This document shows positions 3-55,420 of a stretch of DNA of 64,000 nucleotides, piece after piece. Source of the DNA: Candidatus Microgenomates bacterium (GTDB lineage Bacteria; Patescibacteriota; Microgenomatia; UBA8517); contig JBEKNE010000001.1 in the NCBI GenBank assembly GCA_049523135.1, positions 455,009 through 519,008 of the forward strand. Reading direction: 5' to 3'. Position numbers and translations under genes: made by a program. Every line of letters starts with the position of its first letter. Positions within the stretch are counted from its first letter, which is position 1. A model generated the notes under the pieces. The model worked only from the letters and a program-made list of their open reading frames with translations, made no database searches and was not told where the DNA came from.

Positions 3-3000
3 TACTCGCTTCTCGACGGCCTTAGCAATATTTCAAAGCTCTTAGCTCATATTAAAGAAAACGGAATGGATTCGGTGGCCATTACCGACCATGGGGTGAT
101 GTACGGGGAAATTGAATTTTATAAAGAAGCTTTAAAGCAGGGAGTTAAACCAATACTTGGCATGGAGGGCTACATTACTACCGGAAAATTAACCGATAGA
201 CCTGCTCGTGGAGAACTTCAAAATTATCATTTGATACTTTTGGCAAAAAATCATGAGGGCTATCAGAATTTAATGAAAATTTCTTCAATTGCACATCTTG
301 AAGGTTATTATTATCGACCCAGGTTTGATAGAGAAGTTTTGGAAAAGTATTCGAAAGGTTTAATTTGTACTTCGGCTTGTTCATCCGGTGAAATCGGCAG
401 GGCTCTTATTAATGACGAACCGAAAAAAGCTAAAGAGGCTGCGGAGTGGTATCAGAATTTATTCGGTGAAGATTATTATTTGGAGGTTCAGCGGCACGAA
501 TTTGATAAATGGGTAGAAAAATCTAACGATCAGGAAATTAAAACTTCTCTTCGTGACTTAGCGGAGAACGAAAGAAAGTGGGTGGAGGGTATTAAAAAGT
601 TGAGTAGGGAGTTGGGAATTCCCCTGGTTGCCACTAACGACGCACATTATATTAAGCCGGGTGATGCTCTGGCTCAGGATGTTTTGGTATGTATCTCTAC
701 GGGTAAAGTTATTAATGATACTAAAAGAATGCGTTATATTGATGCGCAAACTTTTTATGTCAGAAATCCTGATGAAATGATAGGACTTTTTCGTGATATT
801 CCGGATGCGATTGAGAATACGGTTAAAATTGCTGATAAATGTAATGTTGAGGTTAAGTTGGGAAGCTGGAGTTTTCCGAAGTTTCCCCTTCCAGCAGGTG
901 TTACGGCAGATGAACAACTTAGAAGACTAGCAAAAGAAGGCTTAATAATAAAAATTCCTAAACCCGATAAGGAAACTAACGACAGGCTAGAGTATGAACT
1001 TGGGATTATTTGCAAAAAAGGATATTCTCCCTACTTTCTTATTGTAAGGGATTTGGCCAATTGGACAAAATCACAAGGAATTATTACTAATACAAGAGGT
1101 TCTGCGGCAGGTAGTTTGGTTTCTTATGTCTTGGGGATTACAACGGTTAATCCTCTTAAATATTACTTGCCTTTTGAGAGGTTTCTGAACCCATATAGGC
1201 CGAGCCCTCCCGATATCGATTTTGACGTTGCAGATAACAGAAGAGACGAAATAATCGGTTATATAACCAAAACTTATGGAAAAGAAAGAGTGGCCCAGGT
1301 TTGTACTTTTGGAAGAATGCTAAGCCGGGCTGCCGTTAGGGATGTTGCCAGAGTTTTGGGATACCCTTATTCAACCGGTGACAGAATCGCAAAAATAATT
1401 CCGCCCCCGAAACAGGGTTTTCCGATAACTATTCCGAGAGCGCTTGATGAAGTTATGGAACTTCGGAATTTATATAATGCAGATGCCGATACTAAAAAAG
1501 TGTTGGATTTGGCAATTCAAATTGAAGGAAATGCGAGACACGTTTCTGTCCATGCGGCCGGTGTTGTCGTAGCTCCGACAGAAATAACCGATTTTTCTCC
1601 TGTCCAAAAAGAACCATCCGGAGAAAAAGTAATAACGCAATACGAAATGCATGCCAGCGAGGATGTTGGTTTAATAAAATTTGATATTCTTGGAATTAGG
1701 AATTTATCCATACTTGGGGCAGCGGTTGATATTGTTCAACGTCTTCATAATGTGCAAATAGATTTGCATAAAATTCCGCTTGATGACAAAAAAACTTTTG
1801 AAATGCTGGCAAAAGGAGAGACAATGGGTGTTTTTCAGTTTGCAAGCGGTGGAATGACTAAATATTTAGTGGAGCTTAAACCTACTCAAATCGAAGATCT
1901 TATGGCTATGGTTGCTCTTTACAGACCGGGACCTATATCGCAAATCCCCGAGTATATAAAAAGAAAACATAATCCTAAATTGGTTAAATATTTGGATCCG
2001 AGAATGGAAAAATTCTTAGGTAAATCCTATGGCCTGATTGTTTATCAGGATGATCTTCTTTTCTGTGCTTTGGACTTGGCGGGATATACATGGGAAGAGG
2101 CGGATAAATTTAGAAAAGCCGTTGGTAAAAAGATTCCTGAAGAAATGGCCGCACAAAAAGAAAAATTCATAAAAGGTATTGTTGCTCACGGGCAAACGGA
2201 AAAATTTGCGGAAGACCTTTGGAAACTGTTTGAGCCTTTCCAATCATATGGTTTTAATAAAGCTCATGCAGCTTCTTACGGCATGATTGCTTATCAAACA
2301 GCCTATATGAAAGCTAATTATCCGGTTGAATATATGGCTGCACTTCTTACGGCGGAGTCCGACGATAAAGATAAAATTTCAGCCGCTGTAAGTGAATGCA
2401 AAAGAATGAAAGTAAAAGTATTACCGCCCGATATTAATGAGTCGCAAATAGGTTTTAGTATTGTTAACGATAAAGATTCACTTGAGGGCAAGGCGATTAG
2501 ATTTGGTCTTTCGGCTATTAAAAATGTTGGAGAGGCTGCAATTTCCGCGATTCTTTTATCCCGTAAAGACGGTAAATTTGAATCATTTGCGGATTTTCTG
2601 GGCAGGGTTGATGCCAGAAAAACAAACAAAAAGGTATTGGAAAGTCTGATAAAAGTCGGCGCAATGTCTTCTTTTGGCGGAAGAGCGGCTCTTTTATCTC
2701 TTATGGACTCGATTCGGGATAAGGTTGTTAAAAAAAAGTCGGACGATAATCAACAAGGGCTGTTTGCCACAGGAGAGCTTAAGAAAACGGAATCAGCATC
2801 ATTTGTGAATATTTCCAATGTTCAGGAATTTTCTGATGAGGAAATGGAATCACTTGAGAGGCAACTTTTGGGGCTTTCGCTTTCGGCAAAGCCGGTTAGC
2901 GAGTTAATCGGTTCTCTTAGCTTCCAGTCAACTCATAAGATTGACGAAATTTTAACTGCGGTTGTTATCCCGGATCATGTGCGGGTTGCGGGTGTTGTAA

Positions 3001-3443
3001 GTACCGTCAGGGTAATTGTGACTAAAAAATCAGGTGCTGAAATGGCTTTTGCCAAGATAGATGACGGGACAGGAACCATTGAAGTCGTTGTATTTCCGAG
3101 CATTTTTAAAGAAACCCGTGATTTTTGGGCTGAAGGTCAGCCCTTACTCCTTGTCGGTAAGGTCGATGTCCGTGACGAGACCCCAGGAATTATAGTTGAA
3201 TCAATCGAAACTCTCTCCAGTTTGAGTGAGAAAAAAGAAAGGGAAGTTTTTATTAAAGTCCCCAAAAGTACAGACGTAAACTCTCTAAAAAGACTTAAAA
3301 CTCTTTTAACCGAGAATTTAGGCGAGCACACGGCGTTTTTGATTTTTGATGAAGGTAAAAAAGTTGCACTGCCTTTTAAGATAGCTTGGGATGAATCTTT
3401 GGCTAAACAAATATCCGAAATTCTGGAAAATACATCTTCTTGA
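3..3443 (+). CDS. dnaE: DNA polymerase III alpha subunit (5' end truncated by window edge)
   Basis: Frame continues upstream of ORF 66..3443 (YSLLDGLSNI...HIKENGMDSVAITDHG is the PHP domain start). Polymerase core motifs run throughout; C-terminal OB fold. Stop is TGA at 3441-3443. Confidence 0.93.
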   Translation, partial: YSLLDGLSNISKLLAHIKENGMDSVAITDHGVMYGEIEFYKEALKQGVKPILGMEGYITTGKLTDRPARGELQNYHLILLAKNHEGYQNLMKISSIAHLEGYYYRPRFDREVLEKYSKGLICTSACSSGEIGRALINDEPKKAKEAAEWYQNLFGEDYYLEVQRHEFDKWVEKSNDQEIKTSLRDLAENERKWVEGIKKLSRELGIPLVATNDAHYIKPGDALAQDVLVCISTGKVINDTKRMRYIDAQTFYVRNPDEMIGLFRDIPDAIENTVKIADKCNVEVKLGSWSFPKFPLPAGVTADEQLRRLAKEGLIIKIPKPDKETNDRLEYELGIICKKGYSPYFLIVRDLANWTKSQGIITNTRGSAAGSLVSYVLGITTVNPLKYYLPFERFLNPYRPSPPDIDFDVADNRRDEIIGYITKTYGKERVAQVCTFGRMLSRAAVRDVARVLGYPYSTGDRIAKIIPPPKQGFPITIPRALDEVMELRNLYNADADTKKVLDLAIQIEGNARHVSVHAAGVVVAPTEITDFSPVQKEPSGEKVITQYEMHASEDVGLIKFDILGIRNLSILGAAVDIVQRLHNVQIDLHKIPLDDKKTFEMLAKGETMGVFQFASGGMTKYLVELKPTQIEDLMAMVALYRPGPISQIPEYIKRKHNPKLVKYLDPRMEKFLGKSYGLIVYQDDLLFCALDLAGYTWEEADKFRKAVGKKIPEEMAAQKEKFIKGIVAHGQTEKFAEDLWKLFEPFQSYGFNKAHAASYGMIAYQTAYMKANYPVEYMAALLTAESDDKDKISAAVSECKRMKVKVLPPDINESQIGFSIVNDKDSLEGKAIRFGLSAIKNVGEAAISAILLSRKDGKFESFADFLGRVDARKTNKKVLESLIKVGAMSSFGGRAALLSLMDSIRDKVVKKKSDDNQQGLFATGELKKTESASFVNISNVQEFSDEEMESLERQLLGLSLSAKPVSELIGSLSFQSTHKIDEILTAVVIPDHVRVAGVVSTVRVIVTKKSGAEMAFAKIDDGTGTIEVVVFPSIFKETRDFWAEGQPLLLVGKVDVRDETPGIIVESIETLSSLSEKKEREVFIKVPKSTDVNSLKRLKTLLTENLGEHTAFLIFDEGKKVALPFKIAWDESLAKQISEILENTSS

Positions 3444-15029: not shown

Positions 15030-15656
15030 CTAGTTTTTTCCGTATCTTCGGATGAGGCCGACAACTCTTCCCTGAATTTTTACATTTTTAACAAAAATCG
15101 GCTGCATTGCTGCATTTGCGGGCTGAAGACGGATTCGTGTGGCTTCTTTAAAAAATCTTTTAAGAGTGGCCATGCCGTTATCAAGAAGCGCCACAACAAC
15201 TTCCCCGTTATTTGCATTTTCTGTTTGTTCAACAATTACATTATCTCCGTCCATTATTCCGTCTTCGATCATACTTTCACCACGGACCTGGAGAATATAA
15301 GTTCTTTTACTGCCGCTGGCAAACGTCGCGGGAATATTCATTGAGGCATTTGGATCTGTGTAGGGTTCAATTGGTGCCCCTGCCGCAATGAAACCCAAAA
15401 TCGGAGCGTCAAAACCCTCTGGCTGTCCTAGATTAACGTCCGATTCGACCAGTTCTATTGACCTGACTTTGCCTGATTTTTTCTTAATAAGCCCTTTCGC
15501 TTCAAGAGATTGAAGGTGTTCATGAACAGTGGCCAAAGAGGATACTCCAATTGCGTCAGCTATTTGCTTAAGAGTCGGAGCTGTGCCGTTTGACTGGATA
15601 AATTGTTTAATAAATCCAAGTATTTGTTTTTGCCTTTTGTAGACGATCAGAGCCAT
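15030..15656 (-). CDS. lexA: LexA repressor
   Basis: N-terminal wHTH. Cleavage and catalytic region AAGAP...RGESMIEDGIMDGD...ATLKRF (S24 peptidase Ser/Lys). Confidence 0.9.
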   Translation of the reverse strand: MALIVYKRQKQILGFIKQFIQSNGTAPTLKQIADAIGVSSLATVHEHLQSLEAKGLIKKKSGKVRSIELVESDVNLGQPEGFDAPILGFIAAGAPIEPYTDPNASMNIPATFASGSKRTYILQVRGESMIEDGIMDGDNVIVEQTENANNGEVVVALLDNGMATLKRFFKEATRIRLQPANAAMQPIFVKNVKIQGRVVGLIRRYGKN

Positions 15657-15729
15657 ATCTTTTTATACAAATAATACCCGAAGTCGTCAACTGGAACTTT
15701 TCATATCAAACCCAAACATATAGCGAACT

Positions 15730-16050
15730 TTAGGAGTGGACTTTATCAGTGGTAAGCAATTTATTAACCTGCCTTGCGTATTCTGTAAGAGCTTCCTGAT
15801 CATGAACGGTTGTTGTGCCTATGTATCCACCGTCTTCTTCCGGATCGGTATAATAAGAGAAGACTACACCTTCTACTTTGCGTGCAACGTTTTCACGGAC
15901 TAATGCCTCTTTTCTGGTCATACGGCAAGTAAAGATATTCCCCTCCTCATCTCTTTCTTGTTTTGTAAGAAACGCCCTACCTACCGGTCTTTCTCTATAC
16001 ATAGGGGACATTATATAACAAAATGCAAATAATGATAAAATTGTCAACAA
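15730..16050 (-). CDS. hypothetical protein (divergent from uvrB, next to lexA)
   Basis: ORF only. Start is probably an internal Met (~16011). Confidence 0.3.
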   Translation of the reverse strand: MLTILSLFAFCYIMSPMYRERPVGRAFLTKQERDEEGNIFTCRMTRKEALVRENVARKVEGVVFSYYTDPEEDGGYIGTTTVHDQEALTEYARQVNKLLTTDKVHS

Positions 16051-19000
16051 TGGGGCAATTTAAGCTACACTCAAACTTTAAACCAATTCCCGATCAGGCT
16101 CGTGCAATTGAAGAATTGTCTGAGGGAATTACGAGTAGTAAAAAATACCAAACATTATTGGGGGTGACAGGGAGTGGTAAAAGTATAGATTACAATGATT
16201 ATGTTTTAATAAAAACTATTGGCAATGGATTTAAATTCAATTTGGTTGAAATTGGCGACTTCATAGATAAAATATTTGAAAACAATGTACATCTAAGTAC
16301 CCATGATTCCGAAATGGTTTATACAAATTCATTAAAAGATAACTATGAAACCTATACAATAAATCCAATAAGTGGAGAGTTTGAATATAAAAAAATTACT
16401 GCGCTTATTAGACATCAAGCGCCTAAACGACTCTATAAAATAACTACTTCTTGCGGTAGGCAAGTTACTATTACTAAAGATCATAATCTCTGGGTATTAA
16501 GAGATGGCCACCTTACTTTAATTAGAACCCAAGATGTACATAGAGGCGATTTTTTACCGATTCCTAGAAATTTAGGATTTATAGCAAATGGTATGGATGG
16601 TATATGGGTAAATGATTATTTGATTAAAAGAAAAATTTATTTTAGCTTAGATGAGCTAACAAAAAGGATATTTATACCTAAAGATAGATTAGTCAGTATT
16701 TTGGGAAATAAATATAATGGTGCAATTACAAGGCATGAAAGGGTTAATATATCTTTTCTGAAAGATCTTATTGGATATGAAAATTTGCATTTAATTAAAG
16801 ATTTGGTAATAAGTCCAAGAATCGGAAATAAAACAACCTTGTATATACCTTTAACTAACAGTTACTTAAATCTTTTAGGAATCTATCTGGCTGAAGGATG
16901 TGTTGCAAATAATTATCTTTTATTAAGTATCCACGAGTCTGAAGCAAAAAGAATACTATTTAGAACATTTAAGAATTTAAATTTACGTTATCACGAGAGA
17001 AAAAATCGTAAAGGTGATTTTCAAATAGATAATTTAATTCTTGCAAAAATATTCAAAGTTTTATGTGGAAATGGTTCAGTAAATAAGCATCTTCCTCCTT
17101 GGTTTTTTAACTTAAGTAAAGATCAAATGGTAAGAATCATTTCTGCCTATTTTGATGGAGATGGATATGTGAGTCGGAATGAAGTAAGTACAACTACTAA
17201 AAGCAAGAAATTAGCATCAGAGCTTATGTATACTTTAAGTATTTTTGATATTGTTGCCAGGTGTAGAAAGGTATTCAAAAGGGCCACAAACAGCAATATG
17301 AAGAAACAATTATATTATGAAGTGGTTATATCGGGTCAAGGGAATATAGATAAATTTAGAGAACATATAGGATTTAATTTAAAGAGAAAAAAGCATTTGC
17401 TTTTAGGTACTTTTAGGGTCAATGAAAATACAAATGTCGATTTGATACCAATAAAGCCATCCGAGTTTATAAATCTTCGCAAAAACGCAAATATTTCTCA
17501 GGAAAAATTAGCTAATCTATCTAGTTGTTCGAGAAGCTTTGTGTCAATGATAGAAAGTGGAAAAAGATTACCTTCGCAAGAAGTCTGCAAATCTATATTA
17601 GATGTTTTTAAAAATATTTTAGAAAATGAAACCGACTTTAAAATATTAGATAAATATTATTCACTTTTAAAAGCCTTTTGGACACCCATAAAGAACATAA
17701 GTTATGTAAGACCATCTACTCCTTTCATTTACGATTTTTCAGTTGATAAAAATGAAACTTTCTTAGCAGGTTTTGGTGGAATTTTTGTGCATAATACTTT
17801 TACAATGGCTGGAGTTATTGAAAAAGTCCAGCGTCCGACATTAATTATTTCCCACAATAAAACTCTGGCCGCCCAGCTTTATCAGGAGCTTAGGGATTTT
17901 TTCCCAAATAATGCGGTTTCTTACTTTGTTTCCTATTATGATTACTACCAGCCGGAGGCTTACATTCCTTCAACCGATACATATATCGAAAAAGACGCGG
18001 ATATTAATGAAACCATTGATAAACTCCGTCTTGCGGCAACCACAAATCTCTTAACGCGATGCGATACAATTGTCGTTGCTTCGGTTTCCTGCATATATAA
18101 CATAGGTTCTCCCCGAGAATACGGACATTTTGTCTTGGAGTTTACGGAAGGAATGAAGATAAATCGTGAACAAATAATTGATCGAATAGTGGACTTGCAA
18201 TATGAGCGAAGCGATTTCGGATTTAATAGGGGTACTTTCAGGGTTCGGGGTAATGCTATTGATATTTATCCTGCCTATCTTGATCAGGGAGTCCATGTAG
18301 AATTCGGTGAGGATAAAATTGAAAAAATTGAGTTAATAAATCCCGTTACGGGAAATAGCGTTCCGAAAAAAGAAGGTTTTGACCCGACGAACTTCATACT
18401 TTATCCCGCCAAACATTTTATGACTAATCCGACAACCTACGATGACGCTTTCGATGCAATCAAAAAGGATTTGGAAAGCCGTGTTTCTCAACTTAAAAAA
18501 GAAGGAAAAGATTTGGAAGCTCATAGGATTGCCCAAAAAGTTACTTACGACATGGAAATGATCAAAGAAGTGGGGTATGTCAAAGGAATTGAAAATTATT
18601 CCAGATATTTTGACGGTCGTTCCCCCGGGGACGCACCCTTTTCGCTTCTGGATTATTTTAACGAGCCCTACAAAGACAAATGGCTTCTCCTTGTCGATGA
18701 ATCTCACATGACTTTTCCGCAAATAAGGGGAATGTTTAATGGCGACTTGTCCAGAAAACAAACGTTAATCGATTACGGTTTCAGACTTCCTTCGGCACTT
18801 GATAACAGGCCTTTGAGATTTGAGGAATTTATGAGAAGAGTTCCTAATTTTATTGCGTCTTCCGCAACACCCAATGAATGGGAAATAAGCATGAGCGGAG
18901 GCAAAGTTGCGGAGCTTTTGGTCAGGCCCACGGGGATTCCCGATCCGGAAGTTGAAATTAGACCTATTAAAAATCAGGTAGCCGATGTTATAGAGGAGAT

Positions 19001-19688
19001 CAAAAAAACCACGGCCAAACACCAGAGGACTCTGGTCACAACCATGACCAAACGTACTGCCGAAGACCTTTCCGCCTATTTGAATGAGCAGGGTCTGAAA
19101 GTTCAATATTTACACTCAGATATAGCCACGCTCGATAGAACCGATATTCTGGATGATCTCAGGAACGGCAAATACGATGTTTTGGTTGGAATTAATCTTC
19201 TTAGGGAAGGCTTGGACCTTCCCGAGGTTAGCCTCGTAGCCATACTAGATGCCGATAAAGAGGGTTTCCTCCGAAGTGACGTAACCCTTGTCCAGACGAT
19301 GGGTAGGGCCGCCAGACACGTTGAGGGGCGTGTAATTATGTATGCCGATAAGATAACCGGCTCGATGGAGAGAGCTCTTTCCGAGGTCAAGAGACGTCGT
19401 GCCTATCAGTTAGAATATAACAAAAATCACAACATTACGCCCGTTAGCATAAGTAAGCCTATCCGCGAGAAACTTATTGAGCATGAAACGGACAAACGTG
19501 CCCCTTGGGTTTTTGGCAGTAAAGAGCCTGTTTACGAAAGCCTTCCGCATCTTGAAATTGATTCAATGACTCCGATGGAGAAAAAGAGGTTGGTTAAAAA
19601 TTTGACCACCGAAATGCGCCTTGCCGCACAGGATCTCAATTTCGAGCTTGCGGCGGAGATAAGGGACAAAATTAAGGAGATTATTTAA
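16023..19688 (+). CDS. uvrB: excinuclease ABC subunit B, interrupted by an in-frame intein (precursor 1221 aa; mature ~683 aa)
   Basis: GVTGSGK | S...intein...VHN | TFTMAGVIE reconstitutes the UvrB Walker A GVTGSGKTFTMA. Downstream helicase motifs, the beta-hairpin and a C-terminal UVR domain follow. The true start may be Met10 (16050). Confidence 0.93.
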   Translation: MQIMIKLSTMGQFKLHSNFKPIPDQARAIEELSEGITSSKKYQTLLGVTGSGKSIDYNDYVLIKTIGNGFKFNLVEIGDFIDKIFENNVHLSTHDSEMVYTNSLKDNYETYTINPISGEFEYKKITALIRHQAPKRLYKITTSCGRQVTITKDHNLWVLRDGHLTLIRTQDVHRGDFLPIPRNLGFIANGMDGIWVNDYLIKRKIYFSLDELTKRIFIPKDRLVSILGNKYNGAITRHERVNISFLKDLIGYENLHLIKDLVISPRIGNKTTLYIPLTNSYLNLLGIYLAEGCVANNYLLLSIHESEAKRILFRTFKNLNLRYHERKNRKGDFQIDNLILAKIFKVLCGNGSVNKHLPPWFFNLSKDQMVRIISAYFDGDGYVSRNEVSTTTKSKKLASELMYTLSIFDIVARCRKVFKRATNSNMKKQLYYEVVISGQGNIDKFREHIGFNLKRKKHLLLGTFRVNENTNVDLIPIKPSEFINLRKNANISQEKLANLSSCSRSFVSMIESGKRLPSQEVCKSILDVFKNILENETDFKILDKYYSLLKAFWTPIKNISYVRPSTPFIYDFSVDKNETFLAGFGGIFVHNTFTMAGVIEKVQRPTLIISHNKTLAAQLYQELRDFFPNNAVSYFVSYYDYYQPEAYIPSTDTYIEKDADINETIDKLRLAATTNLLTRCDTIVVASVSCIYNIGSPREYGHFVLEFTEGMKINREQIIDRIVDLQYERSDFGFNRGTFRVRGNAIDIYPAYLDQGVHVEFGEDKIEKIELINPVTGNSVPKKEGFDPTNFILYPAKHFMTNPTTYDDAFDAIKKDLESRVSQLKKEGKDLEAHRIAQKVTYDMEMIKEVGYVKGIENYSRYFDGRSPGDAPFSLLDYFNEPYKDKWLLLVDESHMTFPQIRGMFNGDLSRKQTLIDYGFRLPSALDNRPLRFEEFMRRVPNFIASSATPNEWEISMSGGKVAELLVRPTGIPDPEVEIRPIKNQVADVIEEIKKTTAKHQRTLVTTMTKRTAEDLSAYLNEQGLKVQYLHSDIATLDRTDILDDLRNGKYDVLVGINLLREGLDLPEVSLVAILDADKEGFLRSDVTLVQTMGRAARHVEGRVIMYADKITGSMERALSEVKRRRAYQLEYNKNHNITPVSISKPIREKLIEHETDKRAPWVFGSKEPVYESLPHLEIDSMTPMEKKRLVKNLTTEMRLAAQDLNFELAAEIRDKIKEII
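16182..17795 (+). mobile_element. intein (538 aa) with LAGLIDADG homing endonuclease domain and XRE-type HTH
   Basis: Begins with Ser after GSGK; block B TITKDHNLW; LAGLIDADG-like LLGIYLAEGCV and ISAYFDGDGYV; HTH ISQEKLANLSSCSRSFVSMIESGKRLPS; ends FIYDFSV...GGIFVHN followed by +1 Thr. Confidence 0.8.
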
Positions 19689-20111
19689 CCTGTTTTTGCT
19701 GTTGCTTTGCCATCAACCTGCGCCCATCCACACCATCCTCTGGCTGCATATCTTGCTTGGTCATTAGAATCAACTTTTTTACAAGGACGCCTTCTTTAAA
19801 AGAATCGCATCCTTGGAAAAATTTGTAATTTGTGATTCTTCAATAGCCATGTCACCTCCATGTTTGAGACCAAGTTTAGCTGCTTTTATTAATCCATCAT
19901 TTGGAAACATGATGTCTTGTAGTTCGGGTTGAAAATATTTTAATTTTTATGACATAAAATTGATCTCAAATTTACTATATGCGGATATTACATTTTAATT
20001 ATCAGAAAAGCAAATATTATTCTGGCCTGGGTAACAAAATTATAAAGATTCCTCAATAGTAATTTTTAATCCTTTTCTGTTGAGAACATCTGTAAGTGTA
20101 TTCATAAACTC

Positions 20112-20498
20112 TTACTGTGTTGCAAAGTGTCCTTCCGGGTATATATGCACAGCCACAATGGTTTCATTGCCTATTGCGCTTCCGTCACTGAAAAAGCCAT
20201 CAGTTAAACCATTGAATGGCAAACCTATTAAATGGCAGGCCTTTTGTGAAACGTTTTCACCGTGATTTAGTTCCAATTCGAGTAGGTTTGTTTGGACAAG
20301 TGTTTTAAGGGAATCTTCACTTTCACTATTGACGGAAAGGGGGATCGCAATTGATTTATCTACCAAAATTCCCAAAAGTGATTTACCTTCTTCATTTTCA
20401 ATTTTCACCAACTTAGCGTGAGTAGAAAAGGTAACTTCCTTGTTTTTCTTGTCGAGTAATTCATTTATTACACCAACATATTTAGGATTAAGTTCCAT
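20112..20498 (-). CDS. hypothetical protein
   Basis: ORF only. The C-terminal ETIVAVHIYPEGH motif is reminiscent of, but does not fit, pyruvoyl-enzyme motifs. Confidence 0.3.
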   Translation of the reverse strand: MELNPKYVGVINELLDKKNKEVTFSTHAKLVKIENEEGKSLLGILVDKSIAIPLSVNSESEDSLKTLVQTNLLELELNHGENVSQKACHLIGLPFNGLTDGFFSDGSAIGNETIVAVHIYPEGHFATQ

Positions 20499-20559
20499 AG
20501 GAGCACATATTGTAGCACCCTTTATGTATTTTGTAAATACTACAGGATAAAAGTGGGGT

Positions 20560-21045
20560 TTATAAATTATTAAGTGTCCAAAATGCTGTTGCAGGAATTG
20601 GACAGAAAAAAGAAAGGGTAACGGGTTTTATTTGATATTTGATATTCGATTCACCGGAAACCCTTCTGTTAATTATTACCAACAGGTTGGCCGTATTAAT
20701 TACCGGACACGGATCGGAAAGACTAAGGCATACGGGGACTGTCCTGTCAAATCTGTTTAAAATATTAGTGTAATAATTTTGTATCATCTTGCCGTTTGCA
20801 TATTCTGTATCGGCATTTTCGTTATAAGGCATATTTGTGTGGATATATATTCCGGGTTTGTAATGGTAATAATTGGGTGTGCTTAAGACACTTACAAAGG
20901 AAAAGGATAGATCCTTTGTTAGGCGAACATTGTCCGAGATATAGGTATATGAATCGATTCTGTTTCCGTCAATAGTTTGTCGGATAGCATCGTGCCACCA
21001 TTTAGGCGCATAATACTCGTTTTTATCATCATACCTTTCCAACAT
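20560..21045 (-). CDS. hypothetical protein
   Basis: ORF only. Lies upstream of 20112..20498 on the same strand. Confidence 0.3.
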   Translation of the reverse strand: MLERYDDKNEYYAPKWWHDAIRQTIDGNRIDSYTYISDNVRLTKDLSFSFVSVLSTPNYYHYKPGIYIHTNMPYNENADTEYANGKMIQNYYTNILNRFDRTVPVCLSLSDPCPVINTANLLVIINRRVSGESNIKYQIKPVTLSFFCPIPATAFWTLNNL

Positions 21046-21128
21046 GGTTGCATCTTACACTTATTTTCGACCATTTTCAGAATGTTGTATAATTGTGAAC
21101 CACCGAATGAAACCGGCGGGAACATTGC

Positions 21129-24851: not shown

Positions 24852-26756
24852 ATGAAATTTTGGAGAATTTTAATTGTTTTAATAATTACCATCTTTTTAT
24901 TTCTATTTAATGCAGGTTTTGTCCACGCTGATGATAATTTTTCTGTTGATTCAAACGTTACCTATGATGTTCAGTCTTCAGGAACAACTTTTGTAAGTCA
25001 CAACGTAACTTTGGAGAATAATTTTTCGACTCTTTACGCCACGACTTATACGCTTGATTTGGAAAATATCGACGCACAAAATATACAAGCTAAAGATTCC
25101 GCAGGAAATATTCTGACAACGGATGTTCAAAAAAACGGCAACCAGACAAATATAAATGTCACTTTTTCGGATGCCGTTGTTGGTAAGGGTGCCCAAAGGC
25201 ATTTTACAATCACCTACCAAAACAACAGTTTTGCAGTAAAAACCGGTGAGATATGGGAAATTTCTATACCAAAACTTGATCAGAATAGTGACTTTAGAAA
25301 TTATCAGGTTGTATTAGAGGTACCCACGGCATTTGGTATGGAAGCTTATATTTCGCCAAAAGCCGAAAATACTCAAAATACAGGTCAGGAGTATATCTAT
25401 ACATTTAGCAAAAATGACATTACTCAAACCGGAGTTACTGCCGGTTTCGGACAATTCCAGGTTTTTTCGTTTAATCTAACCTACCACCTAGAAAATGCTT
25501 TATCAAAGAGCGCACAAACACAAATTGCACTTCCACCCGATACTGCTTTCCAAAAAGTATATTTGCAAAAAATAGACCCCAAACCAGTAAATGTTACTGT
25601 TGATCCGGACGGAAACTGGATTGCTATATACAATCTTTCCGCAAGACAGAGGGTGGATGTTAACGCTTTAGGTTCCGTACAAATTTTTGCAAGTTACAGA
25701 TCATTTCCAAAACCTACAGCCCAAGAACTGGCAGATGATCTAAAACCTACTGAATATTGGCAAGTAAATGATCCTCAAATAAAAGCCTTGGCTGCGCAAC
25801 TTAAAACTCCGAAAGCAATTTATGATTATGTTTCTACAACTCTTAAATATGATGTTGCCAGAGTTCAGCCTGATGTTCAGAGAATGGGGGCGGTTAAAGC
25901 GCTTCAGAATCCCGATCAGGCAATTTGTATGGAATATACGGATCTTTTTATAGCTATTGCCAGAGCTGCCGGAATCCCTGCGCGCGAGATCAATGGTTAT
26001 GCCTATACGGAAAATCCCGATTTACAACCTCTTAGCCTTGTTGCTGATGTTCTTCATTCATGGCCGGAATACTATGATAAAGAAAACCAAGTTTGGGTTC
26101 CGATTGACCCGACCTGGGCATCAACCAGCGGAGGAGTTGATTATTTTGATAAACTTGATTTAAGGCATTTTGTATTCGTGGTTCATGGTGAAAGCGATAC
26201 AACTCCTTACCCGCCCGGTTCATATAAACTTGGACCGAATCCTCAAAAAGATGTTTATGTTTCTTTTGGTACGCTTCCGAACGATAGAACAAGTACTCCC
26301 GGTGTCTCAATTACTGCCGTAAGAACCCTCCCTTTCTTTAGCTCCATTTATTCGGCTGCTATTCAAAACCCGGGCCCTGAAGCTTTATATTCAATTTACC
26401 CGACCGTATACTTCGACGGAAAAGAAACAAGCCGCGATTATGTTCAAGTATTGCCACCTTTTTCCAATTATCAAATGTCGATTAATGTTCCGTTTTCGCT
26501 GCTCGGTAAGAATTCTCCAAGTGTGATTGCTGTAGAAGTGGGCGTAACTACTGCAAAAGTTCCGACCAATAAAAATCAAATAATAATAAATAGTCTTTTA
26601 GTTATATCGATTCTCCTGATACTAATAATATTTGTTGTTTTGATTAGACTTAAAAAAATAACATTTAGCCGGTTTTTTGCTACAATAGCCTCTGTAAAGC
26701 AAAAAATACATGACAAATTTATTAAAAGACCTCCCCAAGATCGGGTTAACACCTAA
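24852..26756 (+). CDS. secreted/membrane-anchored transglutaminase-like cysteine protease domain protein
   Basis: Signal peptide and a C-terminal TM helix. Cys-His-Asp core: QAICMEYTDLF ... HSWPEYY ... IDPTW. Confidence 0.65.
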   Translation: MKFWRILIVLIITIFLFLFNAGFVHADDNFSVDSNVTYDVQSSGTTFVSHNVTLENNFSTLYATTYTLDLENIDAQNIQAKDSAGNILTTDVQKNGNQTNINVTFSDAVVGKGAQRHFTITYQNNSFAVKTGEIWEISIPKLDQNSDFRNYQVVLEVPTAFGMEAYISPKAENTQNTGQEYIYTFSKNDITQTGVTAGFGQFQVFSFNLTYHLENALSKSAQTQIALPPDTAFQKVYLQKIDPKPVNVTVDPDGNWIAIYNLSARQRVDVNALGSVQIFASYRSFPKPTAQELADDLKPTEYWQVNDPQIKALAAQLKTPKAIYDYVSTTLKYDVARVQPDVQRMGAVKALQNPDQAICMEYTDLFIAIARAAGIPAREINGYAYTENPDLQPLSLVADVLHSWPEYYDKENQVWVPIDPTWASTSGGVDYFDKLDLRHFVFVVHGESDTTPYPPGSYKLGPNPQKDVYVSFGTLPNDRTSTPGVSITAVRTLPFFSSIYSAAIQNPGPEALYSIYPTVYFDGKETSRDYVQVLPPFSNYQMSINVPFSLLGKNSPSVIAVEVGVTTAKVPTNKNQIIINSLLVISILLILIIFVVLIRLKKITFSRFFATIASVKQKIHDKFIKRPPQDRVNT

Positions 26757-28053
26757 AATTTACCTTTCTTTGCCGGAAACAGCAGGAATTTATGTCTTTT
26801 TCAAAGATTCCAAACCTATTTATATAGGCAAGGCAATAAATCTTAAAAGAAGGGTTTCTTCATATTTTGATATTAATTTAGAGATCAAAACAGGCAGGAT
26901 GATCAGTGAGGCCGACGAACTATCCTTTATTCAAGTTGAGTCTGAACTGGAAGCGCTTTTACTTGAAGCAAAATTAATTCATACATACATGCCAAAATAT
27001 AATATTGTTGCAAAAGACGATAAACACCCACTTTATATTCAAATAACAAGGGAAAAATACCCCAGAATTGTAACCGCCAGAAAAATCTCCGAGAAACAAA
27101 AAAATATAGCTTTTTACGGACCCTTTCCCTCAACAAGAAACATCACATCGGTTTTAAGGATGCTTAGACATATTTTTCCCTTTTCTGATCATAAAATCGG
27201 TAAGCGCGCCTGTCTTTATTCACACATTGGTCTTTGTAACCCATGTCCGAATGAGATAGAAATTTTGACTGATGTTAGCCTTAAGGAAAGCAAAAGAAAA
27301 ATCTATCTTAAAAATATTAGCAATTTAAAGTCGGTTTTGGACGGAAATATTTTTACCGTTAAAACACATTTAACACACGATATGGAAGGATATTCAAATA
27401 AAAAAGACTTTGAAAATGCGGCGACGGTCCGTGATCAAATTCAGAAGCTCATATATATAACACAGTCACAAATGCCGACGGAATATTATATGGAAAACCC
27501 CAATTTATTGGAAGATGTTCGAAAAAAGGAATTGAGGGAATTAGCCAATATTCTAAATAAATATAAACTGGGAATCAAAAGGCTTAAACGGGTGGAATGC
27601 TTCGATGTTGCACACCTTGCCGGTGCAAACGCTACGGCCTCAATGGTTACTTTTACTAATGGCGAACCCGATAAAACCTATTACCGGCATTTCAGAATCA
27701 GGCAAGGCGCGTCACAGGATGACTATGCTTCCATGAAAGAAGTCATCGCAAGACGCAAAAAACATTTCACCGATTGGGGAAGACCGGATCTTGTTATCGT
27801 AGACGGCGGGAAAGGGCAAGTTTCTGTATTTCTTAGAGAATTGCAGGGAGAAGAAATTCTTGTTATCGGTCTTGCCAAGAAATTTGAGACTTTGGTAATT
27901 CCAACAAAAGTCAGAAATACTATTAATCTTTCCGAGTTCAGACTAAAAAAGGGATGTGCGCTTAACTTTGTACAAAGGATCCGTGACGAAGCACACAGGT
28001 TTGCGCGCGAATATCATCACAAACTTTTTACCAGATCCTTAATTGGAAGCTAA
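26710..28053 (+). CDS. uvrC: excinuclease ABC subunit C (short form lacking HhH)
   Basis: GIY-YIG N-terminus (GIYVFF...IYIGKAINLKRRVSSY), UVR motif ATVRDQIQKL, and C-terminal RNase H-like endonuclease VIVDGGKGQ. Confidence 0.85.
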   Translation: MTNLLKDLPKIGLTPKIYLSLPETAGIYVFFKDSKPIYIGKAINLKRRVSSYFDINLEIKTGRMISEADELSFIQVESELEALLLEAKLIHTYMPKYNIVAKDDKHPLYIQITREKYPRIVTARKISEKQKNIAFYGPFPSTRNITSVLRMLRHIFPFSDHKIGKRACLYSHIGLCNPCPNEIEILTDVSLKESKRKIYLKNISNLKSVLDGNIFTVKTHLTHDMEGYSNKKDFENAATVRDQIQKLIYITQSQMPTEYYMENPNLLEDVRKKELRELANILNKYKLGIKRLKRVECFDVAHLAGANATASMVTFTNGEPDKTYYRHFRIRQGASQDDYASMKEVIARRKKHFTDWGRPDLVIVDGGKGQVSVFLRELQGEEILVIGLAKKFETLVIPTKVRNTINLSEFRLKKGCALNFVQRIRDEAHRFAREYHHKLFTRSLIGS

Positions 28054-45665: not shown

Positions 45666-47267
45666 ATGAAAGCGACAATTATTGCTAGAGTTAGCAAAGA
45701 CGAACAAAAAGAAAATTCACCAGAAGCCCAAAGAGCAAGACTTTTAGCATATATAAAACGGTCAAATAAACTGATTTTGGATAGGGAATTTAATTTTGAA
45801 GAATCGGCCCATAGAGCAAAAGACCGAAAAAAATTTAATAATGAAGTTATTCCGTATCTTAAAAGCCAAAAAGAAACTATCGCTGTATGTTGTGACAAGG
45901 TAGACAGATTGTCTCGAGATTTTTTAGTGGGTCTACCCGCTCTTGAGGAACTTAGAAGAGAAGGAAAAATTGAAATTCATTGCCCATCGGACAATTTGAT
46001 TATACATAAAAATTCCCCTGCGACAGACCTTTTTCATTACAATATAGCATTAGCTCTCGCTCAGTATTATTCGGATAGTACTAGCGACAATGTCAAACGA
46101 GCTTTTGAGAGAAAAATTGCCCGGGGTGTTTATCCAAACCATGTGCCATTGGGATACTTAAATACGCCAGAGTTAGAAAAGGGTCACAGAGAAGTCCACG
46201 ATGATAAGGAAAGATGGCATCTTTGTCGAAAATGGTGGGATTTGATGCTGACCGGAATTTACACAGTAGAGGGCTCCCTTGAAGAAATTACTCGATTAGG
46301 ATTACGAAATTTGAGAGGCAACCCAATCTCAAGAACAACAGCTTACCGGTATTTTAGGGATATTTTTTACACCGGTAACTTCAAATTTAACAATATTGTT
46401 TATCCGGGTAGCCATGTTCCGATGATTACAATGACTGAGTGGATTAAAGTACAACATATTCTCGATAGTAAAGGTAAAAGAGGTAACGGAACAATTGACG
46501 ATTCATTCCAAAAAGCGTTTGAAGGAATGCTTAGGTGCGGTGAATGCAAGGCGAGTATCACGATGGAAAGGAAAATTAAGCATTACAAAAATGGTACAAC
46601 TCAGGTTATTTGGTATTATAGGTGTACGAAAAAGAAAGGACATTGTTCTCAACCATACTTAAATGCTAAAGATTTTGACCCTCAAATCCATAAATATATA
46701 TCAAGTTTAGAGATCAACCCAAAATTTGGAGATTGGATTAAGAAAGTACTTAAAAGGCGTAATGCATATGAATATGAATTTTCTCGTAAAAATAGGGAAA
46801 TAATTACTAAAAGACTAAATGAACTAGATACAAAGAAAGAGATACTTACGAAAATGAAGATGGATGGAATGGTTGACGAGGAGAAGTATCAAACTAAAAA
46901 GAATGCGTACTTAATAGAAGAGAAAGAGTTATTGGAGGAACAATTAGTGAAAACCACTGAAAAATGGGAATCTGTAGTAGACAATTTAATCAATTTCGCC
47001 TCTAATGTTAATAAATTATTCGAGTTTGGAGATATTTACACAAGGCAGTATGTATTAAAAATACTTGGCTCGGACCTGATTTTACTAGACAGAAAAGTTA
47101 AAATTGAGGCTAAAAAAGCGTTTATTTTCCTCCGGGACTATCAAGACAACTCACACACGGAAGATCTATGGCTCGAACCCAAGAATATGCCGTATTCTAG
47201 GACAAAAGAGGACTCTGCCTCTAAAAAATCCCTTACTGTGCCGAGGGCGGGACTCGGACCCGCATGA
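45666..47267 (+). CDS. large serine recombinase (integrase)
   Basis: Resolvase catalytic domain IIARVSKDEQ (Ser nucleophile) and Arg residues. Recombinase domain. Zinc ribbon CGECK...YYRCTKKKGHC. Coiled-coil. C-terminal codons PRAGLGPA lie inside tRNA-Leu. Confidence 0.9.
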   Translation: MKATIIARVSKDEQKENSPEAQRARLLAYIKRSNKLILDREFNFEESAHRAKDRKKFNNEVIPYLKSQKETIAVCCDKVDRLSRDFLVGLPALEELRREGKIEIHCPSDNLIIHKNSPATDLFHYNIALALAQYYSDSTSDNVKRAFERKIARGVYPNHVPLGYLNTPELEKGHREVHDDKERWHLCRKWWDLMLTGIYTVEGSLEEITRLGLRNLRGNPISRTTAYRYFRDIFYTGNFKFNNIVYPGSHVPMITMTEWIKVQHILDSKGKRGNGTIDDSFQKAFEGMLRCGECKASITMERKIKHYKNGTTQVIWYYRCTKKKGHCSQPYLNAKDFDPQIHKYISSLEINPKFGDWIKKVLKRRNAYEYEFSRKNREIITKRLNELDTKKEILTKMKMDGMVDEEKYQTKKNAYLIEEKELLEEQLVKTTEKWESVVDNLINFASNVNKLFEFGDIYTRQYVLKILGSDLILLDRKVKIEAKKAFIFLRDYQDNSHTEDLWLEPKNMPYSRTKEDSASKKSLTVPRAGLGPA

Positions 47268-52066: not shown

Positions 52067-53455
52067 TTAAAACTTCAAATTGAGTGAAGTTTGTAAATAT
52101 GATCCAATTTTCTCAAAAAAGGTATTAAGTTGCATTTTATCTACAATTACACTTTCAATAGGAAAGCTATTTGTAATTCTTTTACCCAACTTGTCCTTTA
52201 AATATATAGATTTTATAAAAATCCCGGTTTCATCGGGAGCGGGCGACTTAAAGACGATTAAACCAACCCTCATTGGATCTATTTCAGTAAACACTAAATT
52301 TTCAAAATTAGTATTACCGGAATCACTTGTAATCGAAACCTCATTAGAATTCCAAATAGATTGACCCGTGTTCTTGGCCAATATCGCACCAAAATAATTA
52401 CTTCCGGGGTAAACTACCGGTTGAGCAAAAGCACCAAGAATTTGACCGCTTTCAATTTGTACAGGAGCCCCCGCAACTTTAGGAATTTCCTGAAGTCCTT
52501 GATAATAAGGATAAAATGTTCCGTCCCTTTTTTCCCACGAAAATTGCGAAAACGGAGATTCCGGATAATTCAAAATAAAGGGAGTTACCGCAACAACTCT
52601 TGGATCGTTCCAAACATTACTAAATGCATAGGAGTACATGGAAGAAATTTCATTTGGGTCAACACTTTGATTAGACCAACCCGTCTCCGTAATAAAAACG
52701 GGTAAATCCTTTTCAATACCAAGAGATTTAAGGTAGGTAAGCTCCCAGTCAAAAGTGTCTATCGATCCACGGCCTGTATCCGTTGCCTTTCCGGCAAAAC
52801 CGGGATTTGGATAGGAATGCGAAGTCCAGCCGTTCAGATTATCAAAAAGATTAGGCTCCGCGGCAAGCATTTTTTTAATAAATTGCCCTTCATCCATTGT
52901 TGTTGATGTATTTTTTGCAGAAGCGTCAAGCCCTGCAGGCAAAACAAAAAAATCAGGAGAAGCCGCGTGAAGTTTTGCCGCAAATTCATTCAGATAAGTT
53001 GCATAATCTGCCGGATCAATTTTTCCTCCCCACTCGGTTGCATGATTCGGCTCATTGTATATAACAATATACCTATTCTCGGTAACCCAATTTAAAGAAT
53101 TTAAAAACGCTATCCAATTATTTATTTCCGCTTCCTGAGGAGCATCCCAAGTATCACCACTTGCGCGCGTTGCTATTCTTACAATCGGAATTAAATGAAG
53201 TTTTCTCATTTGATCAAAAATTTGTTGCCAGCGGTCATGATCACGGTCAGCTTCGGTAATTACAAACGTTACGTAACCCCAATCTCCTCCGTTGGAATTT
53301 ACCAAGTTGACGGCATTCGTTAAATCCCTTTCATCGGTAATATGGATTCCTACTTTATTATTATTAACAGAAAGGGGATTATTTTCAGCAAAAACACAGG
53401 AATTTATAGTAAAAAATATAAAGATAAAAAGAGTTACTGAAAGAAACTTTTTCAT
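52067..53455 (-). CDS. secreted clan GH-A glycoside hydrolase (GH5-like)
   Basis: Signal peptide. Acid/base IVIYNEPNHA and nucleophile VFITETGWS motifs. Confidence 0.55.
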   Translation of the reverse strand: MKKFLSVTLFIFIFFTINSCVFAENNPLSVNNNKVGIHITDERDLTNAVNLVNSNGGDWGYVTFVITEADRDHDRWQQIFDQMRKLHLIPIVRIATRASGDTWDAPQEAEINNWIAFLNSLNWVTENRYIVIYNEPNHATEWGGKIDPADYATYLNEFAAKLHAASPDFFVLPAGLDASAKNTSTTMDEGQFIKKMLAAEPNLFDNLNGWTSHSYPNPGFAGKATDTGRGSIDTFDWELTYLKSLGIEKDLPVFITETGWSNQSVDPNEISSMYSYAFSNVWNDPRVVAVTPFILNYPESPFSQFSWEKRDGTFYPYYQGLQEIPKVAGAPVQIESGQILGAFAQPVVYPGSNYFGAILAKNTGQSIWNSNEVSITSDSGNTNFENLVFTEIDPMRVGLIVFKSPAPDETGIFIKSIYLKDKLGKRITNSFPIESVIVDKMQLNTFFEKIGSYLQTSLNLKF

Positions 53456-53510
53456 ACTGAATATACATTTTAGCAACAAATTGGCAAAGTTGTAATGAAG
53501 CAAAGAACAA

Positions 53511-53813
53511 ATGCAAATGAAGAAAATCCAAAATGAATCCGCATATACCAAAGAATTCTACGAAAAAAGCGCCGATCTTTTTAAAATTCTGTCCAACGCT
53601 AAAAGACTTGAAGTACTTAATTTAATCAAAGATAAAGAAGTTACCGTTAATGACCTTTCCAAAATACTCGGAACTAGAAAATCAAATACTTCACAACACC
53701 TTGCATACTTAAGATATACAGGACTTGTCAAAACCAGAAGACAGGGTAAAAATGTTTTCTATAAACTTGCAGATCCCAAAATTGTCAAACTCTGCAAAAT
53801 TTTAACTGAGTAA
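53511..53813 (+). CDS. ArsR/SmtB-family transcriptional regulator
   Basis: LFKILSNAKRLEVLNLIKDKEVTVNDLSKILGTRKSNTSQHLAYLRYTGLV is an HTH_5 signature. Confidence 0.75.
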   Translation: MQMKKIQNESAYTKEFYEKSADLFKILSNAKRLEVLNLIKDKEVTVNDLSKILGTRKSNTSQHLAYLRYTGLVKTRRQGKNVFYKLADPKIVKLCKILTE

Positions 53814-53826
53814 AATCTTCTTTTTG

Positions 53827-53898
53827 TGACCCTGGGAAGAATCGAACTTCCATCTCGTTCTTAGAAGGAACTTGCTCTATCCGTTGAGCTACAGGGCC
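53827..53898 (-). tRNA. tRNA-Arg(UCU)
   Basis: Manual fold: acceptor GGCCCTG/CAGGGTC; anticodon loop CTTCTAA; T-arm GGAAGTTCGATTCTTCC. Confidence 0.82.
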
Positions 53899-53965
53899 TC
53901 GTGAGCGGGCGATGGGAGTCAGACCCACCCTCTTCTTCTTGGCAAGAAGACGTTTATTCGATAAA

Positions 53966-54646
53966 CTACGCCCGCATTTCAGTTGCTAACAAATCTATCC
54001 ACTGCTTCATTTTAATATTATCCTCGACACTCGAATAGTATATATCACACATTCCATTTATTACTTTATGTTTCGTAATTCCACTCTTACTTGGTAAGAC
54101 TTGGGTTTTAATAAATTGTCGTTTATCCAAATTCAAACTTTTTGCCCAAAAATCTAACGCCTTTTTTTCATTTATGTCATTATAAATAAAAATCTCCGCT
54201 CTCAATTTATCTTCCGGTATATTCAGTACTTCACGATAAAACCTAATCATCACTTTTAGCATTCTTACATCAGAATTAACAAAAGCAATTCTACCGCATT
54301 CAGTTTTATTACCTTCTCCCCAATAAATTGCCAAGCCTAGTACGAAAAGTCTATCTTCTTTTAATTTTAAATATTCATCTTTTGCACTATACCTATAATT
54401 TTCATATTTTATTAAAGTCTGAAGATGTTTTATTCTGTTGATTTTTCTCAAATAGTTAGAACTTCTTCTTTCATTTTCGGCAATTAATTGAATTTTAATT
54501 GTCTCGGACCAACTTTTATCAGATAATCAATTACTTATTGTACTCTTAGCTAAGTTTAAATTATTGCTGATTTCAGAGTAACTCTTTCCACTTTTTCTAA
54601 ACTCAATAACCTTTTTGTATAAACGTTTATTACGCACAATTGACAT
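53966..54646 (-). pseudogene. HTH + LAGLIDADG-like homing endonuclease-like gene interrupted by an in-frame TGA
   Basis: ATG at 54646 gives 39 codons (HTH-like KVIEFRKSGKSYSEISNNLNLAKSTIS), then TGA at 54527-54529, then the same frame continues into ORF 53966..54451 (LGLAIYWGEGNK is a LAGLIDADG-like motif). Confidence 0.4.
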
Positions 54647-54868
54647 ACATATAATATGTTAATACGAAAGTTCGAAATTTCAATGTACAAATAACTATGT
54701 CGAGAACGATGCTGTACTAGAACATTCTCGACAGGCTTAATTTTACAACAAAAGACCGGGAAACTCTATATTTGAACAGTTTGACTATATTCATATTATA
54801 AGGTACACTCGGCCGGTAAGTACTTTTGCTCATTAAAATCTATTTTATTCACATCAAGGAGGTGTGAA

Positions 54869-55420
54869 ATGAAAATAAAAGTTTTGCTTTTTGTATTTGT
54901 ATTAACATCAGTTATCAGTTTGTATTCGTGTGGACAAGCTCCCGCAACAGAATTACATGAAGCGGCAGACACACCACTACCGATAAATACACCCGTACCC
55001 ACGGGGACATCCGTTGCGACCGTAATACCGTCCGCAACAAAAACATTCGGTCCGACCGAAACTCCAACAAGAATTCCGGTAATAAACGGTCATTTTATAG
55101 GGACTAACCCAATAGTTTCGTTTGATGAAATTTTATGGGAAATAACAAACTTTAAAATTACCGTTCCTTTTAAAAACAATACAACCTGTACTCTTAGTCA
55201 CCCGTATTTTATGGACATAGATTCGAAGGGTACTTTTTCATACTCTGTCTATGTATGGGGGAATTCTAAAGAACCGGACATTATTGTTACGGGTAAATTA
55301 AACGATAATTCCATAAGCGGAACATATTCTATAGATATCTGTTATGGAAATGAATACTCAGATAAGACAATTTCTCCATATACAGGTACTTGGAATGCAA
55401 TTTTGAATGGCTCCGACTAA
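54869..55420 (+). CDS. lipoprotein, paralog family member 2
   Basis: Signal + lipobox (ISLYSCG), PT-rich linker, and a domain homologous to 51223..51777 (IGTNP.VSFD...KITVPF...C..IDIC). Confidence 0.6.
   Translation: MKIKVLLFVFVLTSVISLYSCGQAPATELHEAADTPLPINTPVPTGTSVATVIPSATKTFGPTETPTRIPVINGHFIGTNPIVSFDEILWEITNFKITVPFKNNTTCTLSHPYFMDIDSKGTFSYSVYVWGNSKEPDIIVTGKLNDNSISGTYSIDICYGNEYSDKTISPYTGTWNAILNGSD

Follow-up and report, generated by a model that had tools for sequence, protein, structure and literature searches.

What makes the UvrB protein of a candidate phyla radiation (CPR) bacterium 1221 amino acids (aa) long, and could such a protein still serve in DNA repair? The question is raised by a stretch of 64,000 nucleotides (nt) from a Candidatus Microgenomates bacterium (assembly GCA_049523135.1, contig JBEKNE010000001.1, positions 455,009 to 519,008; here called the window, with positions counted from its first letter). 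An earlier note, made from the letters of the window alone, had claimed that its uvrB gene is split at 16182-17795 by an intein of about 538 aa inserted in the Walker A P-loop. We find that the insert is very probably a class-1 intein that lies nested in uvrB and is composed of a HINT domain, a double-motif LAGLIDADG homing endonuclease, a helix-turn-helix (HTH) accessory domain and a second HINT domain, and that it probably reached this genome fairly recently by horizontal transfer. For annotation, the 1221-aa UvrB is neither a fusion nor an error. The parts of the gene, all on the plus strand, are as follows.

16023-19688, plus strand: uvrB open reading frame (ORF) with the intein, 1221 aa
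16023-16181, plus strand: N-extein of UvrB, which counts 53 aa with the ATG at 16023 as start or 44 aa with that at 16050, ending with GVTGSGK of Walker A
16182-17795, plus strand: whole intein, 538 aa, Ser1 to His537-Asn538, recognised by Pfam and NCBIfam profiles, a Protein Data Bank (PDB) match and AlphaFold2/Foldseek
16182-16586, plus strand: N-terminal HINT domain (intein aa 1-135), carrying block A at Ser1 and block B, TKDH; supported by the intein_Nterm profile and the beta-strand pattern of the model
16473-16484, plus strand: block B, TKDH (T98, H101)
16587-16856, plus strand: linker or small helical region, intein aa 136-225, boundaries inferred, with a predicted local distance difference test score (pLDDT) of 51-64 over aa 150-220
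16857-17441, plus strand: LAGLIDADG homing endonuclease domain, intein aa 226-420, by LAGLIDADG_3 and Foldseek
16866-16901, plus strand: LAGLIDADG motif 1, LNLLGIYLAEGC, containing LLGIYLAEG, with E238
17148-17171, plus strand: LAGLIDADG motif 2, YFDGDGYV, with D327
17442-17627, plus strand: intein aa 421-482, an accessory HTH domain of the XRE/Cro-C1 type that follows the nuclease and precedes the C-terminal HINT domain
17475-17609, plus strand: stretch of the HTH domain covered by Pfam HTH_3, intein aa 432-476
17628-17795, plus strand: connecting helix and C-terminal HINT domain, intein aa 483-538, by intein_Cterm
within 17628-17795, plus strand: block F, PFIYDFSVDKNETFLAG (D518), and block G, FGGIFVHN
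17796-19688, plus strand: UvrB C-extein, 630 aa plus stop, beginning with Thr+1 of the Walker A GKT

Translation fixes both ends of the insert. It spans residues 54-591 of the ORF, with Ser54 beginning at nt 16182 and Asn591 ending at nt 17795, and directly follows GVTGSGK (residues 47-53), giving the junctions GVTGSGK/SIDYND and GGIFVHN/TFTMAG (slashes mark the break points), between the Lys and the Thr of Walker A. The insertion is in frame and codon-exact at a canonical intein site, and both its coordinates and its junction residues (Ser1, His-Asn and Thr+1) are exactly as the earlier note had read them. Close UvrB homologues have their first residue opposite the second ATG (16050). The true start of uvrB may therefore be this ATG, in which case the precursor would have 1212 aa and the intein would occupy residues 45-582. 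Once the insert is removed, a UvrB of 683 aa remains (674 aa if translation begins at 16050). It can be aligned over its whole length with crystallised UvrB proteins, best with that of B. caldotenax (2fdc, E 5.6e-228), and shows no gap at the junction ('qtllgvtgsgktftmagvi' against 'QTLLGATGTGKTFTISNVI'; LLGVTGSGKTFTMAGVI against LLGATGTGKTFTISNVI at the splice point), confirming that excision restores the P-loop. The whole ORF also scores above the cut-offs of both NCBIfam UvrB equivalogs (NF003673, 941.8 bits, cut-off 743; TIGR00631, 924.6 bits, cut-off 750.1), in each case as two stretches on either side of the intein, and the exteins, 90% identical in protein sequence to intact relatives, carry no lesion.

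Profile searches with the insert alone returned the expected intein signatures together with a domain that the earlier note had overlooked. In Pfam, Intein_splicing scored 54.8 bits (cut-off 35.8), LAGLIDADG_3 56.4 bits (cut-off 22.5, E 3.6e-15) and HTH_3 39.5 bits (cut-off 23, E 5.6e-10, intein aa 432-476); in NCBIfam, intein_Nterm (TIGR01445) scored 38.3 bits (cut-off 24.5) and intein_Cterm (TIGR01443) 25 bits (cut-off 15.6). The claimed block B of the form TxxH is present as TKDH, as are two LAGLIDADG motifs (LLGIYLAEG and YFDGDGYV), and these profile and motif matches are not due to chance. The best PDB sequence match is PI-PkoII (2cw7, 9.3e-24), followed by the TFIIB, KlbA, CDC21 and RadA mini-inteins. 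An AlphaFold2 model of the intein, built from a 7-sequence alignment, is confident (pLDDT 82.7, predicted template modelling score 0.84); it places the two LAGLIDADG helices at aa 226-238 and 313-327 and folds the HTH domain into four helices with a pLDDT of about 90-96. With this model, Foldseek retrieved PI-PkoII (6e-28), TliVMA (1.7e-24), PI-PfuI (1.7e-21) and also PI-SceI, and its nuclease matches included PI-PkoII, TliVMA, PI-PfuI, I-DmoI and I-Tsp061I.

The two best fold matches are also informative as to layout. PI-PkoII, or PI-TkoII, the second intein of the Thermococcus kodakaraensis DNA polymerase (template modelling score, TM, 0.67), resembles the window intein in length (537 against 538 aa), in its HINT domains, in its double LAGLIDADG nuclease and in its HTH-like accessory domain, but the two are 19% identical in structural alignment and its host is an archaeal family B polymerase, where it occupies no P-loop site. 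TliVMA, from the V-ATPase A subunit of Thermococcus litoralis (VMA-b, 7qss; TM 0.80, target-normalised), shares both the P-loop insertion and the position of the accessory domain between the nuclease and the C-terminal HINT domain; it differs in its archaeal host, in the ATPase that it interrupts, in sequence (17% identity) and in having Cys1 (crystallised as C1A) where the window intein has Ser1. TliVMA and PI-TkoII have a common layout of HINT, nuclease, accessory domain and HINT, and their accessory domain, which resembles the HTH of the 434 repressor, alters the choice of DNA sites for cleavage (Beyer et al. 2022, PMC8966425). The HTH within the uvrB intein is in this sense an already known kind of feature, and the linker at aa 136-225 may correspond to the extra domain of PI-TkoII.

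Residue conservation was read from an alignment of 60 complete UvrB inteins taken out of species genomes. Ser1, T98, H101, D518, H537 and N538 are invariant (60/60) and all are present in the window copy, which also has Thr+1. The nuclease residues E238 (57/60), D327 (58/60) and Lys302 (58/60) are nearly as constant, and the window copy again has all three. Judged by these residues, the intein probably splices and its nuclease probably still works. As the nucleophiles are all oxygen (Ser1 and Thr+1), a cysteine-free chemistry along the class 1 pathway is expected from the established mechanism of inteins. uvrB would be translated as a 1221-aa precursor in which the ATP-binding loop is broken between the Lys and the Thr of GKT. 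An N-O acyl shift at Ser1 would come first; the hydroxyl oxygen of Thr+1, the very threonine of Walker A, would then take over the ester, and Asn538 would cyclise with the aid of His537 and of residues in blocks B and F. A final O-N shift would restore the peptide bond, with a normal UvrB of some 674-683 aa and the free intein as the products. The nuclease of the free intein, probably aided by its HTH domain, would then cleave, in the DNA encoding the P-loop, those uvrB alleles that lack the intein, and repair of the cut allele would copy the intein in, completing homing. The unspliced precursor should not bind ATP normally, because the break falls between the Lys and the Thr of the Walker A GKT. 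Since this split P-loop belongs to the only uvrB in the 64 kb (a six-frame profile scan of the window found neither a second uvrB nor another intein), it is reasonable to infer that nucleotide excision repair (NER) depends on splicing.

The intein stands out from its surroundings in composition, another feature that the earlier note had missed. Its GC content is 28.8% (20% at third codon positions, GC3), compared with 42.6% (GC3 42%) in the exteins, and it is the lowest-GC 1.6-kb stretch of the 64 kb, about 4 standard deviations below the window mean of 38.6 ± 2.4%. Most UvrB inteins have a GC3 below that of their exteins, usually by far less; the deficit of 13.9 points in the window intein is the third largest among the 60, which places this copy among the three with the largest deficit.

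The closest relatives of the host gene, meanwhile, have empty sites. In a search of 5.8 billion proteins with the spliced UvrB, the best 120 UvrB clusters (83-90% identical, 638-695 aa, and, where named, from Woesebacteria, Microgenomates or Patescibacteria) were intein-free without exception (120/120), and their names mark the organism as a Woesebacteria-like CPR bacterium. In one syntenic relative (L004), the genes for PPDK, enolase, iPGM and DedA, lexA, a small ORF, uvrB and uvrA follow in the same order as in the window, and the uvrB site is uninterrupted (GGAAAA/ACATTC; GGATCCGGAAAA/ACATTCGCAATG, or, with flanks, ...GGTGTAACCGGATCCGGAAAA/ACATTCGCAATGGCCGGG...). The exact 1221-aa protein was found on 4 contigs, three of them of 0.2-1 Mb; the window itself belongs to a 640,746-bp contig of JGI metagenome 3300038429. 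A co-conversion tract was also considered and set aside: the first 90 nt are 62% identical to the empty allele against 76% overall, which is uninformative, the N-terminus being generally less conserved. Taken together, the GC deficit and the empty sites suggest that the Woesebacteria/Microgenomates lineage probably acquired the intein by horizontal transfer not long ago. The description of the element as an active or recently active homing intein is supported indirectly, by the intact catalytic residues, the strong GC deficit and the 120/120 empty sites.

The same uvrB site is occupied in many phyla, a third point on which the earlier note was silent. When 1.84 billion cluster representatives were searched exhaustively with a family profile, there were 20,871 matches at E ≤ 0.001, 880 of which reached E ≤ 1e-30. 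Among the top 150 matches, at least 23 are UvrB fragments with an intein at the same P-loop site; other hosts in this group likewise bear the intein in their P-loops, namely MCM-like (GDPGTGK/S...HN/SQLL), VirB11/PilT-like (GGTASGK/S...HN/TTTLN) and HerA-like ATPases, whose inteins are among the closest profile matches to the window intein. A survey in which each GTDB species was represented by a single genome turned up 100 stretches with a match to a diagnostic peptide; 80 of these were kept, and 73 of the 80 are uvrB with the junction G[VA]T[GA][ST]GK/S...HN/T. The hosts belong to Chloroflexota, Gammaproteobacteria, Bacteroidota/Rhodothermales, Cyanobacteria, Omnitrophota, Myxococcota, Paceibacterota and Gracilibacteria, and the cultured Ca. 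Fervidibacter sacchari PD1 also carries such an intein. UvrB P-loop inteins are nonetheless rare (at least 73 of 185,579 species). Public copies, in Ca. Fervidibacter sacchari PD1 (NZ_CP130454.1) and in metagenome-assembled genomes (MAGs) of Anaerolineae, Steroidobacteraceae, Rhodothermales, cyanobacteria, Paceibacterota and Gracilibacteria, have the identical insertion point, the same domain order and invariant Ser1, HN and Thr+1. The HTH domain is present in all UvrB inteins scored for it (62/62) and in 5/5 archaeal HerA inteins. Pairwise identities of inteins and exteins are only moderately correlated (Spearman 0.56), as would be expected if vertical descent and transfer both contributed.

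In several long-read MAGs (MFD... assemblies; P0004, P0005 and P0006; L043, L070 and L072), an intein-containing uvrB is frameshifted in or after the intein, with protein tails out of frame, and in L070 and L072 the two termini of the intein are read in separate frames. These frameshifts are either sequencing error or real decay.

UvrB P-loop inteins are thus already in public genomes of many phyla, and we found them undescribed in papers: our literature search found no paper describing a UvrB intein and nothing relevant on inteins in the CPR or Patescibacteria. Novikova et al. (2016, PMC4760082) stress P-loop insertions and list UvrD, RecG and others as hosts; UvrB is absent from the main text and the top-15 host tables of that paper. 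The DnaB (site b), MCM (site a) and RFC (site a) inteins that they treat are comparable to the UvrB inteins, each interrupting the Walker A motif of a DNA-metabolism ATPase ahead of a conserved Ser or Thr at +1.

Within this family the window intein is isolated. It is 29-37% identical to every other UvrB intein, against a median pairwise identity of 45% for the family, and no relative above about 38% identity was found in any collection searched. A single-sequence search of the 5.8 billion proteins gave 11 intein matches, at most 35% identical; a scan of JGI metagenome contigs found no close relative; and a scan of viral contigs gave only partial matches of ≤30% to the nuclease and no evidence for a phage vector. 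Placement was examined with distance (neighbour-joining) trees only, and in their bootstraps the window intein is never nested inside the main UvrB clade, so that we take it, on the basis of these trees, for a divergent lineage that stands apart from the main clade of UvrB inteins. As close to it as any UvrB intein (35-37% identical) are P-loop inteins in HerA (DUF87) genes of Nanoarchaeota, Methanosarcinales and unclassified archaeal MAGs.

L015, 916-2502: HerA (DUF87) P-loop intein
L036, 2132-3718: HerA (DUF87) P-loop intein
L051, 2699-4285: HerA (DUF87) P-loop intein
L056, 3001-5097: HerA (DUF87) P-loop intein
L063, 3001-4587: HerA (DUF87) P-loop intein

The HerA inteins have near-identical termini (PASTGKGK/SLDENEEV...GLFVHN/SNLMS) and a GC content of 26-32% against 34-48% in their flanks, and look like a low-GC lineage spreading between archaeal hosts.

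These inteins resemble that of the window in having an HTH domain, a low GC content with a deficit relative to the flanks, and a similar N-terminus (SLDENEEVLIK against SIDYNDYVLIK); they differ in host gene, in the domain of life and in having Ser at +1. With few outgroups, the window intein groups with them in 79-97% of bootstraps, also after Dayhoff-6 recoding, but this placement dissolves in the distance trees when 14 further P-loop inteins are added, and shared indels gave no polarisation. For this reason we do not claim an archaeal origin. That the window intein has an ancestry apart from the widespread bacterial clade of UvrB inteins, and that instead a low-GC lineage shared with P-loop ATPases of DPANN or other archaea (HerA or MCM type) colonised the Walker A site of uvrB independently, across both domains and genes, appears unlikely on these data. 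Such a jump would have taken place between two ultra-small episymbiont groups in the same habitats, and it would have been enabled by the shared coding sequence for GK followed by Ser or Thr and by an HTH domain that confers promiscuity.

Several considerations weigh against the view that a functional homing intein arrived in uvrB fairly recently. Relaxed selection and AT drift, and not recent transfer, could account for part of its low GC content, and no relative above ~38% identity was found that could point to a donor or yield dN/dS. Splicing and DNA cleavage are read from residues only, and the open frame is no proof of nuclease activity, because the host C-extein needs the frame open anyway. 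It is possible, and we put this forward tentatively, that the intein splices while its endonuclease is dead or dying, leaving a fixed, immobile passenger late in the homing cycle. The lack of a close relative (at most 37% full-length identity) could mean that the intein has long resided in isolation; the model has low confidence over aa 136-225; and decay does occur in the family, in which nucleases with internal deletions are seen (for example in P0005 and in loci with inteins of 438-499 aa). The nuclease domain in the window is full-length, however, with both LAGLIDADG acidic residues and the Lys intact; a GC3 deficit of 22 points argues against long amelioration, and the intein-free state of the best 120 UvrB relatives argues against ancient fixation in the lineage. 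Loss of splicing itself, which would make uvrB effectively a pseudogene and mean that NER has been lost in a reduced genome, is far less credible. CPR bacteria do have reduced repair repertoires, but we found no direct evidence for non-splicing, and this explanation has to contend with the presence of Ser1, T98, H101, D518, H537, N538 and Thr+1, with lesion-free exteins that are 90% identical to intact relatives, and with intact uvrA and uvrC genes nearby.

Splicing could also be conditional on DNA damage, single-stranded DNA, redox state or temperature and so act as a switch on NER, an idea compatible with a class-1 homing intein but one that we consider improbable. The P-loop of a repair ATPase does match the pattern that Novikova et al. 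(PMC4760082) read as functional clustering, and conditional splicing is documented for the P. horikoshii RadA and mycobacterial DnaB inteins; were it to hold here, NER would be gated post-translationally in this organism. On the other hand, Ser1 and Thr+1 are not redox- or zinc-sensitive thiols, and a sporadic distribution with empty sites in all close relatives is the pattern of a selfish element and not that of a retained regulator. Least probable of all, to the point of being negligible, is an artefact of assembly or binning in which a chimeric contig has brought an intein-like sequence of foreign origin into uvrB. In its favour, the boundaries of the insert are exactly those of the sharp drop in GC content, but so precise an insertion (in frame and codon-exact at a canonical site, with Ser1 and HN/T), the occurrence of the exact protein on 4 contigs and the same architecture in 73 other genomes speak against it.

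As a class-1 homing intein, the element is ordinary in kind, selfish, and leaves the understanding of inteins unchanged; its host gene is one rarely reported for inteins. UvrB, the central ATPase of bacterial NER, joins the repair and replication ATPases with a P-loop intein, fitting the known clustering of inteins in Walker A loops, and the case adds one more probable horizontal transfer into a reduced CPR genome. Of interest in this intein are the little-documented host gene, the Ser1/Thr+1 chemistry, the strongly anomalous composition and its isolation within the family. A cysteine-free Ser1/Thr+1 intein with a natural HTH domain could, moreover, serve protein engineering or meganuclease work.

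Upstream of uvrB, the earlier note had described a lexA-divergent SOS locus, and two genes bear on this description.

15030-15656, minus strand: lexA (Pfam LexA_DNA_bind and Peptidase_S24), divergent from uvrB
15730-16002, minus strand: 90-aa ORF between lexA and uvrB, without a Pfam match

lexA does lie adjacent to uvrB, 367 nt upstream on the opposite strand, and this adjacency is conserved in the syntenic relative L004, where a 94-aa ORF occupies the same place as the 90-aa ORF, although the two proteins are not alike. The divergent arrangement holds, while SOS control of uvrB is only putative: an ORF intervenes, and a search for Cheo-type LexA boxes (CGAAC-N4-GTTCG-like, up to 2 mismatches) found none near lexA or uvrB, with the limit that this consensus may not be that of the lineage. 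A simple palindrome scan of the lexA-uvrB region likewise found nothing shared with the syntenic relative. A block directly upstream of lexA is conserved between the window (15657-15729) and L004 (5586-5674), reading TACCCGAA.TC.GTCAACTGGAACTTTTC.TATCAAA.CC.AACAT.TAGCGAA. On the lexA strand it contains a promoter-like pair, TTGACG-17-TATAAA, as read from the letters, and it could hold the LexA operator of this lineage.

Downstream, uvrA and uvrC are intact, and uvrB, uvrA and uvrC lie within 12 kb. Between uvrB and uvrA, a spacer (19689-21128) contains ORFs of 128 and 161 aa, both on the minus strand, as well as a patch at 19750-20200 with a low GC content of 30-32%; relatives have other small ORFs there (73 and 116 aa in L004, 153 aa in L003), so this spacer varies between strains. 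uvrC (26710-28053, plus strand) encodes only 447 aa, with GIY-YIG and UvrC RNase H-like domains (E up to 1e-5) and no other Pfam match, and its ORF overlaps the end of a transglutaminase-like ORF (24852-26756) by 47 nt. Farther along the window, a large serine recombinase (45666-47267, plus strand; Resolvase and Zn_ribbon_recom) lies ~6 kb upstream of the second-lowest-GC patch (~53100-55000, ~32-33%), which adjoins a 494-aa ORF (52067-53551) without a Pfam match; this region may be an integrated element. At the other end of the window, the gene for the DNA polymerase III alpha subunit (66-3443, plus strand), among the commonest bacterial intein hosts, is intein-free.

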